NCBI RefSeq assembly: GCF_029227855.1
Contig: NZ_CP074357.1
Source: Escherichia coli
GTDB taxonomy: Bacteria; Pseudomonadota; Gammaproteobacteria; Enterobacterales; Enterobacteriaceae
DNA: 64,000 nt
Direction: 5' to 3' (one strand)
Shown here: one piece after another, positions 39,001 to 42,000 of the stretch
How positions within the stretch are numbered: the first letter of the stretch is position 1
Layout of the letters: each line of letters starts with the position of its first letter
Position numbers: made by a program

Positions 39001-42000
39001 CGAATCGAAGCCATACTTCAGGCAGATATCGTAGACCCGCTGATCGGTGTCACGCAGATCGCGGGCGGCCAGCAGCAGCTTCCTTTCGCGAATATAGCGC
39101 CCCAGGCTCTCCCCTTTATACTGTAAAAACAGCCGTTGCAGATGCCATTTCGAATACCCGGCATGGCGAGCGATATCATCAATACGCAGCGGTTGATGCA
39201 GGTTGTCATCAATCCACTCGACGATAGTATCAATCACCTGAGCGGAAATCGTCATATGCTCTCTCCTCTGATACTGCACTGGCGCTTAGCGCCACCAGGC
39301 GTTAAATGATTGCGTCTTATCGGCGACCCACACCGGCTCGCCCTGCACAGGCGTCAGCAGACGCCAGGCCCTTCCTTCGCTGGCAGCCGCCAGCCGTTGA
39401 TACGGTTCATCCCAGCTGTGTTTCGCCAAAACGAATCGTCCTGCATGCCCAGGCAGCACCGCGCGAGCGCGCAGGTCGTCGGCGGCCTGAGCTGTTTCAT
39501 CCGGCATCATGTGAATATATTTCCAGTCCTGGTCATACTGCCCGTTCTCCATGATCGCCAGATCGACCGGACCAAATTCATCGCCTATCGCTTTAAAGTG
39601 CGGCCCATAGCCGCTGTCGCCGCTGTAATAAATCCCTAAATTCCACGTGTGTTTTTTATTAGCTTCAAAAATCACTATTTCACGAAGAATTTAGACTGCT
39701 TCTCACACATTGTAACATTATTTACAACCACCTTTCAATCATTTTTGATAAATCATTGATTTCATCTTTGCTGCAATGATACTTAATAAACTCTGCAAGT
39801 TATCCACAGAGCAGGAAAAGTTCGAAGCATTCTTCTTTCAGATGTTTCTAAACACTGGAAATTGAGAGATTTAGCTGATTATCTTTACATGAGCGAGAGC
39901 TTAATAAAGAAAAAGCTATTATTAGAAAACACTTCTTTCAGTAAAATATTACTTGATACTAGGATGTCGCTCGCCATTAAATTGTTAAAGCAAAATCATC
40001 CGATAAAATATGTGTCTGAAATGTGTGGGTTTAGTAGTACATCGTACTTTGTATGCCTTTTCAGACAATACTATGAGTGTACACCACGTAAATATCTAAA
40101 GCATTAGAGAACACCTGCCTTTACTTCCTTATTTTACCAATAATTTCAGCTAAGAGATTTTGATCTAAATGTTCGTTAATCGTTAAGCTTACTTCTGTAC
40201 ATGCCCTTATATAGATGTTCTGAACGGTGTTATTTCTGACAATGGACTTAAATGTCAGTAACGCCATTACACAGTTGGCCAACGCGAACAGCAGTATTGG
40301 TCGCAACAAAAAATGAAAGAAAAATCCCCCAAATGAAGGGAAAAAACGGAAGAACAGTCGAACGACAGGCACAAAAAAACCCGACTGGTAATCGGGCTTT
40401 TTCGTGTTTTCCAGTCCTGAGTTGGTGGCTCTGACTGGAGGAAGATACTCTACATCCAACATCCACAATATTATGGCACTAGACACCAGTTGTCTAGTTT
40501 GACTTCAGATTGTCTGTCAATGGCCATTTCTTTAAATGAATTTTATGCGTGCATCTGTATAATCTTTGCGTTGGCGCTGTACAGTGTGCCTCCCTTGCTT
40601 CTAAACCCTGCGCTATCTGGGTATGAACGAATTAAAGTCCTGGCTGAACAAACAGGTGGTGCTGTGTTCAGTGCTCTGGCAGGAGGAAGGTACTCTACAT
40701 CCAACAATGTGAGAGAGCCGTTGTGACAGGCGATGTATGAGCAAGCAACGGCGACTTCCTCCAGTATCAACCTGGAGAAACGGATGATTAACCTGTTAAT
40801 CATCGTTCTCAGGGCTGTGGTCGCCGTTGCAAACGCGCTGATTGCAGTTCTGGAACTGATCCGTCAGTTCATCGACTGATGACTGCGGAAACGTAACTAA
40901 GGGCAGGAAGTGCACCGCTTCCTGCCCTTTAACAAAGGAGGATTTATGGATTTTATGAGCATTTTGGGGCGCTGTTTACTTCTTCCTTTCCCTGTTGCGA
41001 TGTTTGTCGGTTGCCTGTTTCCAGGCATTGATGATCGTTTTACTGGAATGTTCATGAGTTTTATTGTCGGTTGTCTATCGTGGTATATCACCAAGCCAAA
41101 ACCGCAAAAGGCTGAGGTCGCGTAAGCGGCCTTTTTTACGTCTCTCGTTTAATTCCTCGCCATTCTGTCCAGAAATAGTATTGCGGCTAATCAAGCCAAT
41201 TCCTACGTCTTTTCGCTGTTGCACGATCTAAAAGAAAATATGGGAAAATTTCATGAAAGTATGGTACTAAAGGGTCTTTAATTCCTTTATCTTGTTCCTT
41301 CAACTGCACAGTATCTCGTAAAAACCAACAAGCCGGTTGTTTAAAAAACGCTCTTAGCGTAGGATGTTTTCCATTTTCCAAGTGGAACCCAAGTACGATG
41401 CCCGCGAAAAAGACAGCCCTCTTATGAAGAGGGCTGTTATCTGATATAGGCTTGTTATGGTCTCACTCTTGATTAATCAGGTGTATGTGCAACCTTGGTG
41501 CACACAATCGATTATGCAGCTTGATGATCTGAAGTGTTACCGGAAGTATCTTCGGTTCGTTTTTTGTTTGTGATGGATTCACTTTTATCTCGCAAGGCTG
41601 AGTCTATGACGTTAAACACCTTTTCCCACCGAGAAATCCAACCGCATATAGGTTGAACACGACATTTTTCCAGGAAGAAATTTAATAAGTTAGTTTTTTT
41701 ATTATCTTGCACTTTGAATGGTTCAATTACATCATCGGCATCAACAGATTTTCCTCCGATAAACCACGACGGATGGGTTTCCATTGCGTCAGAAATGAAA
41801 TCGTCAGGGAAGAGGCCTTCAATAGCAAAACCACTTCTTACAGAAATATAGTCTTTATTTGACTCAAATCTAATTTGTTTTTTACCAAAGTAGCTTTGTA
41901 ATCTGGTTCTTTCTTTGACCCCAGCTTCATCACCGTCAAAAACAGATATTACGGGGACATCTTTAGAAATAAACTCGTAGCACCCTTTCAAGAATCCCCC

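Follow-up and report, generated by a model that had tools for sequence, protein, structure and literature searches.

A probable DqlB/AgrB type I toxin-antitoxin module of the DinQ family in an IncX-type backbone segment of an IncHI2-type plasmid

DqlB/AgrB is an already known toxin-antitoxin system: its name dates from 2016, it is annotated, and it has been described and experimentally validated on other plasmids (PMC5066626, PMC12365149, PMC12317039). For pOXA-48 and pOXA-484 it was demonstrated in 2025 to be a plasmid addiction module (PMC12365149, PMC12317039). DqlB of pOXA-48 is toxic and is counteracted by AgrB, with rescue abolished by a 4-nt mismatch and restored by the compensatory change, and cells cured of the plasmid are spared from killing when AgrB is supplied in trans (PMC12365149). 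On the IncX3 plasmid pOXA-484, the corresponding locus shows toxicity when agrB is missing, and it confers stability on a test plasmid (PMC12317039). The chromosomal relative of these modules is dinQ-agrB of Escherichia coli K-12, located at arsR-gor (Weel-Sneve 2013; Kristiansen 2016, PMC5066626). The toxins of hok/sok (plasmid R1), tisB/istR-1, zorO/orzO and shoB/ohsC are likewise small membrane-toxic peptides, encoded by inert primary mRNAs that are activated by processing and controlled by antisense RNAs at or upstream of the ribosome binding site (background in PMC5066626 and PMC12365149). Like DqlB/AgrB, hok/sok is a plasmid addiction module; Sok, however, is an antisense RNA overlapping its target gene in cis, whereas AgrB comes from a diverged repeat located apart from its target.

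The window analysed here (the whole 64-kb stretch of DNA) carries a locus with the gene order, orientation and AgrB fold of E. coli dinQ-agrB, and with no sequence or model match to hok/sok, tisB/istR-1, zorO/orzO or shoB/ohsC. There is little doubt that it is best explained as an intact type I module, DqlB/AgrB of the DinQ family, lying in an IncX-type backbone segment inside an IncHI2-type plasmid. The initial annotation had described it as a DinQ-like type I locus with a repeat-encoded antisense RNA, a description borne out by matches to the NCBIfam model of DqlB and the Rfam model of AgrB. The toxin gene is the following:

40784..40879, plus strand: dqlB coding sequence (NCBIfam NF041473; RefSeq WP_000609149.1, dqlB)

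Translation of this ORF gives a 31-aa peptide, MINLLIIVLRAVVAVANALIAVLELIRQFID, which matches NCBIfam NF041473 ("DinQ-like type I toxin DqlB") along residues 1-31 of 31 with 72.8 bits (cutoff 35, E=1.4e-20); RefSeq labels the identical sequence dqlB. The likeness to DinQ that had been proposed is correct at the level of the family but not of the subfamily, which is DqlB: the model of DinQ proper (NCBIfam NF041472) scores the peptide at 25.3 bits, below its cutoff of 30, in an alignment limited to residues 18-30. A PADLOC search with DqlB returned no match. The strong hydrophobicity and ribosome binding site noticed earlier were both confirmed, the peptide having a GRAVY hydropathy of 1.87 (comparable to the 1.79 of DinQ) and the sequence GGAG lying at 40774-77, 6 bases 5' of the ATG. 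As in other members of the family, DqlB is a short, strongly hydrophobic peptide, a putative single helix with a polar C-terminal end. It shares 26-30 of 31 residues with each of nine other plasmid DqlB peptides compared, namely 30/31 with the IncX1 representative, 28/31 with the IncX3 representative and 26/31 with the pOXA-48-like representative (IncL; locus L013); the toxin of pOXA-48 is also 31 aa long. E. coli DinQ differs in having 27 aa and a GTG start codon, where dqlB of the window has ATG.

An alternative in-frame start at 40733 had also been suggested. The ATG is present, but it is not conserved: it is missing from the nine other dqlB loci and from the plasmid DinQ-type locus compared, and among the compared loci only E. 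coli dinQ has an upstream ATG of its own. Two other dqlB loci offer a much shorter alternative only (an in-frame ATG 4 codons upstream), and in most other loci the frame upstream of dqlB is open for just 4-14 codons. Since this stretch also falls within a structured leader, the 48-aa product from ATG 40733 was rejected and the 31-aa product retained.

The antitoxin RNA is encoded upstream of the toxin gene, on the opposite strand, by these features:

40372..40461, minus strand: AgrB antitoxin sRNA, ~88-90 nt (Rfam RF02891; 5' end at 40459 by the model, could be 40460-40461)
40468..40496, minus strand: agrB promoter-like site TAGACA-N17-TAATAT (consensus scan, 9/12 matches)
40373..40397, minus strand: AgrB intrinsic terminator, stem 40380-40397 followed by a U7 tail (Rfam terminator helix, hairpin scan, sequence)

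Comparison of the minus strand from 40459 to 40372 (88 nt) with the Rfam AgrB model gave 68.8 bits (gathering score 40, E=5e-11), spanning the full model (1-84) with no non-canonical pairs. This is the sole Rfam match in the whole window; Thr_leader, sR38 and bxd_5, the other Rfam candidates in the region, scored below their gathering thresholds and were taken as chance. AgrB of the pOXA-48-like representative, unlike that of the window, falls below the gathering score. The minus-strand promoter-like hexamers (40496-40468) and the hairpin at 40380-40397 with its T-run, both pointed out in the initial annotation, are present and bracket the 88-nt match, and an alignment of homologous loci shows similar hexamers in the closest of them. 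As on pOXA-48, AgrB is divergent from and upstream of dqlB; the two genes do not overlap, agrB being separated by ~110 nt from the dqlB +1, which homology places at 40570. A second, agrA-like RNA was not found, the window yielding one AgrB-family match whereas the E. coli locus, which contains the agrA paralogue, yields two. The RefSeq annotation lacks the AgrB RNA and places a 113-aa CDS, probably spurious, across it.

Pairing between AgrB and the dqlB leader involves two segments:

40428..40459, minus strand: AgrB antisense (recognition) segment, nt 1-32 (pairing, duplex energy, covariation)
40673..40704, plus strand: AgrB target site in the dqlB leader, containing element 2 (pairing, duplex energy, covariation)

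The direct repeats of ~25 bp that first drew attention to this pairing are real, at coordinates one base away from those originally given (40437-40461 and 40682-40706). A search with three mismatches allowed found exactly two copies in 64 kb, where none is expected by chance, and membership in a larger repeat family, which had been named as grounds for doubt, was rejected as no further copies occur there. The 25-bp copies form the core of a longer repeat of 48 nt with 81% identity, and the complementarity extends over 32-34 nt rather than 25. AgrB nt 1-32 and leader positions 40673-40704 pair at 31 of 32 positions, including two G:U pairs, with one A:A mismatch; the predicted duplex energy of -57 kcal/mol compares with -22.4 +/- 3.1 when AgrB is shuffled (z=-11). 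That an antisense RNA carrying the complement of the upstream repeat pairs with the downstream one, as the initial annotation proposed, is thus upheld by the predicted duplex and by strong intermolecular covariation across loci. Among 11 homologous loci, 16 of 23 duplex pairs have compensatory changes on both sides, and 96.4% of cells are paired, a value reached by 0/500 shuffles, while slid registers are ~45% paired. In a 12x12 matrix of AgrB/target duplexes, the cognate mean was -52.6 kcal/mol and the non-cognate mean -35.7. These predicted energies suggest that an IncX5-type AgrB would protect partially against dqlB of the window, and the chromosomal AgrB not at all. Gene conversion between the repeats could partly maintain this identity of AgrB and target, besides selection on pairing. 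The target site corresponds in position to G88-A119 of dinQ (PMC5066626), and at both loci it lies ~76-79 nt upstream of the start codon. AgrB of pOXA-48 is likewise complementary over ~32-35 nt to its 5' UTR, with a different recognition sequence in both AgrB and target, since the variable 5' region covaries.

The dqlB transcript and its structural elements were placed as follows, the mRNA ends by two alignments with the E. coli numbering checked against published sequence elements:

40558..40563, plus strand: dqlB promoter -10 box TATAAT (alignment of 14 homologous loci)
40570..40935, plus strand: dqlB mRNA, ~366 nt with a 214-nt 5' UTR (homology to E. coli dinQ +1 and 3' end)
40593..40602, plus strand: leader element 1, CCUUGCUUCU, pairing with element 2 in the full-length transcript (predicted minimum-free-energy fold of the full mRNA)
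40643..40672, plus strand: leader stem-loop SL2 (RNAalifold consensus with compensatory changes)
40681-40690, plus strand: element 2, AGGAGGAAGG, within the AgrB target site
40718..40751, plus strand: leader stem-loop SL4 (RNAalifold consensus)
40755-64, plus strand: element 3, CUUCCUCCAG, which can alternatively pair with element 2 (sequence)
40772-77, plus strand: element 4, the Shine-Dalgarno (SD) sequence CUGGAG (sequence)
40759-64/40772-77, plus strand: SD-sequestering hairpin of elements 3:4 (RNAalifold consensus)
40779-40807, plus strand: start-codon hairpin, holding the dqlB start codon
40899..40929, plus strand: dqlB terminator hairpin (12 bp) followed by UUUAACAA (hairpin scan; conserved with covariation)

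The TATAAT at 40558, proposed earlier as the start of a long leader, was confirmed by its conservation in the 14 homologous loci (including E. coli dinQ), five of its six positions showing no variation and the remaining one being conserved to at least 90%; it aligns with the -10 box of dinQ, the +1 of which is known (PMC5066626). A promoter scan called none at the dqlB start, and the -35 region is poor. The homology-placed start near 40570 gives a 214-nt 5' UTR, and this leader is ~20 nt longer at its 5' end than that of E. coli dinQ. RNAalifold recovered SL2, SL4, the SD hairpin, the start-codon hairpin and the terminator, with compensatory changes in 22 of 67 pairs. Within SL4, pairs 158/185, 159/184 and 160/183 are altered on both sides, and for the SD hairpin five sequences have both-side changes at several pairs. 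The terminator is equivalent to SL9 of dinQ (PMC5066626). The leader architecture and terminator are also those of pOXA-48, and the four-element leader switch, SL2, SL4, SD hairpin and terminator are shared with E. coli dinQ. Membership of the family by sequence, the complementarity of AgrB and leader with its covariation, and the conserved leader structure are all demonstrated at this locus.

Folding of the full-length dqlB mRNA left the SD sequence with a probability of being unpaired of ~0, the SD hairpin (3:4) being favoured over the 2:3 duplex by 3.4 kcal/mol. In 5'-truncated RNAs this preference falls to about zero (ddG -0.2 to +0.6), a shift in the same direction as that of E. coli dinQ upon truncation (+7.1 to -0.8). 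The homology-placed processed form, starting near 40631, shows a weakly opened SD (probability unpaired 0.05-0.15 by thermodynamic folding), and when the AgrB site was blocked in folding the SD was closed in every form of the RNA. This evidence is soft, since the E. coli +1 transcript used as a control was predicted with an open SD but is closed by SHAPE; for this reason unconstrained folding was dropped as a test of the switch and just the direction of the energy shift was used. As expected of the family, the leader is predicted to contain the mutually exclusive pairings 1:2, 2:3 and 3:4 together with conserved SL2 and SL4, within the limits of this imperfect control.

The kinship with dinQ, which is LexA-regulated (PMC5066626), would also allow DqlB to be not an addiction toxin but an SOS-induced membrane peptide, one that modulates nucleoid compaction and recombination following DNA damage. 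The dinQ promoter has a LexA operator overlapping its -10 box, but this element is absent from the dqlB promoter, where the E. coli CTG-N10-CAG aligns to CTG-N10-GCG, and it is also degenerate in other plasmid loci. The sole CTG-N10-CAG motif of the locus, a weak LexA-like sequence at 40640-40655, has been predicted as a LexA site on pTF2 (HI 11.64; PMC12211044). It lies ~70 nt inside the transcript, however, and overlaps SL2 from 40643, so that it is accounted for by RNA structure. Proteomics of pTF2 did not detect DqlB, and an SOS-dependent change in DqlB is therefore not demonstrable there (PMC12211044), while the plasmid homologues act as addiction modules (PMC12365149, PMC12317039). SOS control was accordingly rejected, and an SOS role of this kind appears extremely improbable.

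As an addiction module, the locus would be expected to function in the following way. Transcription of the plus strand would yield the ~366-nt dqlB mRNA with its 214-nt leader, in which the SD would be hidden in the 3:4 hairpin since element 2 is engaged by element 1. By analogy with dinQ, 5' trimming would release element 2 to pair with element 3, and the ribosome binding site would open; the 31-aa single-helix DqlB would then be translated and damage the inner membrane. The divergent ~88-nt AgrB would use its 5'-most 32-34 nt to pair with the site in the leader that includes element 2, re-closing the SD hairpin and probably creating a substrate for RNase III. Such 5' processing, like cleavage of the AgrB duplex by RNase III, is known only for E. 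coli dinQ (PMC5066626). Provided that AgrB decays more rapidly than the mRNA, a prerequisite of post-segregational killing, plasmid-free cells would lose AgrB first and die, and the killing of plasmid-losing cells would stabilise the plasmid. Judged by its homologues, the dqlB/agrB locus of the window is probably transcribed and processed, and it may well be toxic and plasmid-stabilising; unlike chromosomal dinQ, it is plasmid-borne, with a putative addiction role.

The module sits in a ~3.9-kb segment of IncX-type plasmid backbone within an IS26-rich resistance region of the IncHI2-type plasmid. The pOXA-48 copy, in contrast, belongs to the backbone, between repA and trbC, and the agrB-dqlB loci of IncX plasmids (pOXA-484 of IncX3 and relatives of IncX1/X4/X5) differ from this one in replicon. 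The neighbouring ramA, taken for a fragment in the initial annotation, is in fact full length. Directly downstream of dqlB, behind a weak terminator, lies a further conserved gene:

40946-41125: orf59, conserved 59-aa membrane protein

It had no match in NCBIfam, PADLOC or Pfam, and it might be a further functional partner. The closest full-locus relatives among non-IncHI2 plasmids are those of IncX1/X4/X5 (77-81% identity), and orf59, an OLD-family ATPase and a gene annotated 'peptidase M14' are downstream neighbours common to the window and IncX1. CP074237, an IncX1 plasmid, shares only 83% identity with the window in the toxin-antitoxin locus but 98.7% in the adjoining 3.1 kb, suggesting recombinational exchange of the module or of its neighbours. 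In its conserved 3' scaffold, AgrB has greater similarity to that of another dinQ-like locus on this IncX1 plasmid.

Given its place in a mosaic accessory region bounded by IS26 copies, the module does not necessarily help to stabilise this plasmid. The module could be intact in sequence and yet functionally silent or redundant, a passenger captured with the IncX backbone that makes no measurable contribution to maintenance. Other stability systems are generally present on large IncHI2 plasmids, and a closely related copy in pSI85-1 (the first locus of L003) is visibly decaying, with its SD mutated to CTAGAG and its ORF truncated. A dqlB homologue is carried by only 5.5% of IncHI plasmids (PMC12365149), and a literature search found no paper mentioning both dinQ and IncHI2 plasmids. 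In the window, however, the -10 box, SD, ORF, terminators and 32-nt complementarity are all intact, and its 851 bp recur with 100% identity in more than 200 plasmids that have the gene labelled dqlB in RefSeq; counted at 99% identity or above, the plasmids number 205, which argues against decay. Moreover, a functional antitoxin is indispensable to a cell that carries an intact toxin gene, which would otherwise kill it, and repression by AgrB, at least, must therefore operate if dqlB is transcribed. A silent passenger is consequently judged improbable, if somewhat less so than SOS control, and an intact DqlB/AgrB module is preferred.

Knowledge of the DqlB/AgrB family is left unchanged by this locus, and the practical value of the finding is one of annotation, as RefSeq labels the toxin while the AgrB antitoxin RNA is missing. 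The covariation across plasmid lineages gives independent support to the base-pairing mechanism and hints at specificity classes. It is possible, though doubtful, that ~20 nt at the 5' end of AgrB, together with the leader site they match, form a fast-evolving recognition code, the modules of different plasmid lineages being partly orthogonal; if true, co-resident plasmids would be unable to neutralise each other's addiction, and the IncHI2 allele would have arisen by exchange of the toxin-antitoxin cassette (83% in the locus against 98.7% in the flanks). The resistance region of widespread IncHI2 plasmids of E. coli, Salmonella and Enterobacter likely includes an addiction module, and DqlB/AgrB could hamper plasmid curing strategies, as demonstrated with pOXA-48.

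The initial annotation read the locus as a type I toxin-antitoxin system resembling DinQ, and this reading is supported by matches to the NCBIfam DqlB and Rfam AgrB models and by AgrB/leader pairing. The peptide encoded by dqlB is strongly hydrophobic (GRAVY 1.87) and aligns from end to end with the curated NCBIfam equivalog NF041473, "DinQ-like type I toxin DqlB" (72.8 bits vs a cutoff of 35); against the DinQ model NF041472 its score is sub-threshold (25.3 vs 30). It is identical to an IncX3 representative at 28 of 31 residues and to a pOXA-48-like representative at 26 of 31. 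The in-frame ATG at 40733, suggested earlier as an alternative start, is present but is absent at that position from the other dqlB loci compared, two of which carry only a much shorter upstream in-frame extension, with an ATG 4 codons upstream. Since this ATG is specific to the window allele, the conserved product is the 31-aa peptide.

Features of the agrB-dqlB locus (window coordinates, strand)
40784-40879, plus: dqlB ORF, 31 codons, MINLLIIVLRAVVAVANALIAVLELIRQFID; GGAG at 40774-77 ahead of the start
40496-40468, minus: agrB promoter-like TAGACA-N17-TAATAT (sequence scan)
40459-40372, minus: AgrB, Rfam RF02891 matched end-to-end (68.8 bits vs gathering score 40, E=5e-11)
40380-40397, minus: AgrB GC-rich hairpin with U7 tail (sequence, Rfam model)
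40593-40602, plus: leader element 1, CCUUGCUUCU
40643-40672, plus: stem-loop SL2 (RNAalifold consensus)
40681-40690, plus: leader element 2, AGGAGGAAGG, within the AgrB target
40718-40751, plus: stem-loop SL4 (RNAalifold consensus)
40755-64, plus: leader element 3, CUUCCUCCAG
40759-64 / 40772-77, plus: Shine-Dalgarno (SD) hairpin (RNAalifold consensus)
40772-77, plus: leader element 4 and SD, CUGGAG
40779-40807, plus: start-codon hairpin (RNAalifold consensus)
40899-40929, plus: dqlB terminator, 12-bp hairpin (RNAalifold consensus)

The direct repeats described earlier are real, with coordinates one base off (correctly 40437-40461 and 40682-40706). Across the 64-kb window they occur in two copies only (chance expectation, none) and form the core of a 48-nt repeat of 81% identity. 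Past the promoter-like site, the minus strand carries the complement of the first repeat, an internal stem-loop and then the terminator hairpin. AgrB is the sole Rfam family found in the entire window, so a second, agrA-like copy is absent; the same scan gives two hits at the E. coli chromosomal locus. AgrB is without annotation in the RefSeq records inspected. A RefSeq hypothetical CDS, WP_032142515.1 (113 aa; 40121-40462, minus strand), spans the entire AgrB gene; this CDS is probably spurious, as the ORF is of low complexity and straddles the left boundary of the IncX-homologous segment at ~40251.

AgrB nucleotides 1-32 and leader positions 40673-40704 form 31 of 32 possible pairs, including two G:U, with one A:A mismatch; by the sequence, two extra pairs would be possible if AgrB starts at 40461. 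Duplex energy is predicted at -57 kcal/mol; 500 shuffled versions of the AgrB segment give -22.4 +/- 3.1. Fifteen homologous loci were retrieved, in eleven of which AgrB was placed by Rfam and the target site located. The first ~20 nt of AgrB are highly variable among loci and every target varies in step with its own AgrB: across the 11 aligned pairs, 96.4% of cells are standard pairs and changes on both sides are seen at 16 of 23 pairs. Registers shifted by 1-3 positions are only ~45% paired. On four of five measures no column shuffle out of 500 came up to the real alignment; on the fifth (further standard pair types), 16 did. Mean duplex energy is -52.6 kcal/mol for cognate and -35.7 kcal/mol for non-cognate combinations. 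Gene conversion may contribute to this matching, given that AgrB and target sites are repeats of each other.

In an alignment of 14 loci including E. coli dinQ, five of the six positions of the TATAAT at 40558-63 never vary, and this box lines up with the -10 box of dinQ. The dinQ +1 as published (numbering checked against published elements) then falls at G40570, which gives a 214-nt dqlB leader and a transcript of ~366 nt, its end placed by homology just past the terminator hairpin. RNAalifold analysis of 12 mRNAs recovered the five structural features, with compensatory changes in 22 of 67 pairs; all five are elements of dinQ/dql genes (Kristiansen et al. 2016, PMC5066626). All four switch elements of the leader can be recognised in the window. 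In the predicted full-length fold 1:2 and 3:4 are formed and the SD is entirely paired. Pairing 3:4 is favoured over 2:3 by 3.4 kcal/mol at full length, and 5' truncation brings this margin to near zero (ddG -0.2 to +0.6); E. coli dinQ shifts the same way (+7.1 to -0.8). Blocking the AgrB site in folding closed the SD in every RNA form. With the E. coli +1 RNA as control, the same program errs by leaving the SD open, and the dqlB folds are therefore read only as supportive.

The dinQ LexA operator over the -10 box is CTG-N10-CAG, whereas the window equivalent is CTG-N10-GCG; in the other plasmid loci the operator is degenerate too. The sole CTG-N10-CAG of the locus (40640-40655) lies ~70 nt inside the transcript, coincident with SL2. 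On plasmid pTF2 this motif is a weak LexA candidate (HI 11.64), and DqlB was not detected in that plasmid's proteomic analysis, so that SOS-dependent change was not assessable (PMC12211044). Across the window CTG-N10-CAG is not enriched (19 vs 15.4 expected). A canonical LexA-box-like palindrome occurs as a single copy at 15578-15593 (CTGTATGTATGTACAG), and another, CTGTGTTTACATACAG, in identical copies 4284 bp apart (27986-28001 and 32270-32285).

An 851-bp stretch spanning the locus recurs at 99% identity or more in 205 PLSDB plasmids, the best match being typed IncHI2A; the matches listed have E. coli, Salmonella, Enterobacter and Shigella as hosts and for the most part measure 215-315 kb. 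Matching records label the ORF "dqlB: DinQ-like type I toxin DqlB", and remoter homologues occur on thousands of IncX, IncI, IncL/M and IncF plasmids. In a matching IncHI2A plasmid the order is IS26, IS4321, glutathione synthase, DUF1158, ramA, agrB-dqlB, orf59 (a 59-aa ORF), OLD-family ATPase, a "peptidase M14" gene, IS26, aph(3')-Ia and IS26. There ramA is full length, not the fragment initially proposed. The ORF at 38129-38896 (plus strand) begins with ~80 residues that we take to be the IS26 transposase N-terminus, fused to unrelated sequence; the downstream part is a DUF1158 protein in RefSeq. This ORF is the mark of a truncated IS26 end and of a recombination junction to the left of ramA. 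Homology to IncX1 plasmid CP074237 covers window 40251-44157 at uneven identity: 83% over the toxin-antitoxin locus, 98.7% over 3.1 kb from 41064 on, and, for 40251-40440 (AgrB 3' part and flank), 89% to sequence flanking another locus of that plasmid, of DinQ type. By this homology the module lies within a captured IncX-type backbone piece, and it looks recombinationally mosaic.

Directly downstream, orf59 (WP_000347021.1; 40946-41125, plus strand) encodes a hydrophobic protein behind a strong ribosome binding site, AAAGGAGG. Its start lies 17 nt past the dqlB terminator, whose U-tract is weak, and it may be co-transcribed with dqlB by read-through. Homologues were found by tblastn in 712 plasmids; that of IncX4 is 78% identical, equal in length and again directly 3' of dqlB. 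No match was obtained in Pfam, NCBIfam or PADLOC. Within orf59 (41004-41076, plus strand) are 13-nt direct repeats, TTGTCGGTTGCCT and TTGTCGGTTGTCT, 60 nt apart; the ~60 nt separating them are apparently missing from CP074237, an indel that would keep the frame, and identity to that plasmid rises from 83% to 98.7% at this site. Two further genes follow:

41512-43413, minus: OLD-family ATPase, 633 aa (PADLOC Old, 66 bits)
43519-44028, minus: 169-aa ORF, "peptidase M14" (RefSeq annotation)

Further ATPase matches are AriA of PARIS (64 bits, an N-terminal match at full length) and numerous GajA models; PADLOC gives no match for the 169-aa ORF. Together the two genes share 98.7% identity with a block of IncX1 backbone and may represent an OLD-family defence gene adjoining the toxin-antitoxin module.

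Some plasmids bear more than one module. The IncHI2A/IncN plasmid pSI85-1 (NZ_CP050780.1) has two agrB-dqlB loci ~650 bp apart (713-1270 and 1375-1864 of the extracted locus, L003). The window locus has its closest relative in the first of them (89%), in which the SD is changed from CTGGAG to CTAGAG and the ORF is truncated; judged from sequence, this first copy is decaying. Its AgrB is one base off that of the window, with a predicted pairing to the window target of -56.4 kcal/mol. IncX1 plasmids also bear a gene for a 27-aa peptide of DinQ type, accompanied by an AgrB of its own (1063-1146 in L014, from NZ_CP116155.1, peptide MIDKAIIVLGALISLLELIRYLLQLMG; 10672-10755 in L017, from CP074237.1), labelled "dinQ" or "Damage inducible protein"; thus two different DinQ-family modules can share one plasmid. 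A third, AgrB-like fragment lies at 1863-1940 of L017.

The naming of the dql genes dates from 2016, and a leader mechanism shared with dinQ was predicted for them (PMC5066626). The pOXA-48 locus was reported in 2025 to be toxic, with ghost cells formed, and to kill after plasmid curing; agrB in trans rescued cells through base pairing, as shown by a 4-nt mismatch and compensatory change (PMC12365149). The same study found dqlB homologues in 5.5% of IncHI plasmids. The pOXA-484 IncX3 locus was likewise toxic and made a test plasmid more stable (PMC12317039). Our literature search found no paper naming both dinQ and IncHI2. The window locus is, by its predicted features, an intact member of this named, annotated and experimentally validated family. 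It very probably constitutes a working DqlB/AgrB type I toxin-antitoxin module acting through the AgrB/leader duplex, and it is likely that the module would measurably stabilise this particular plasmid.
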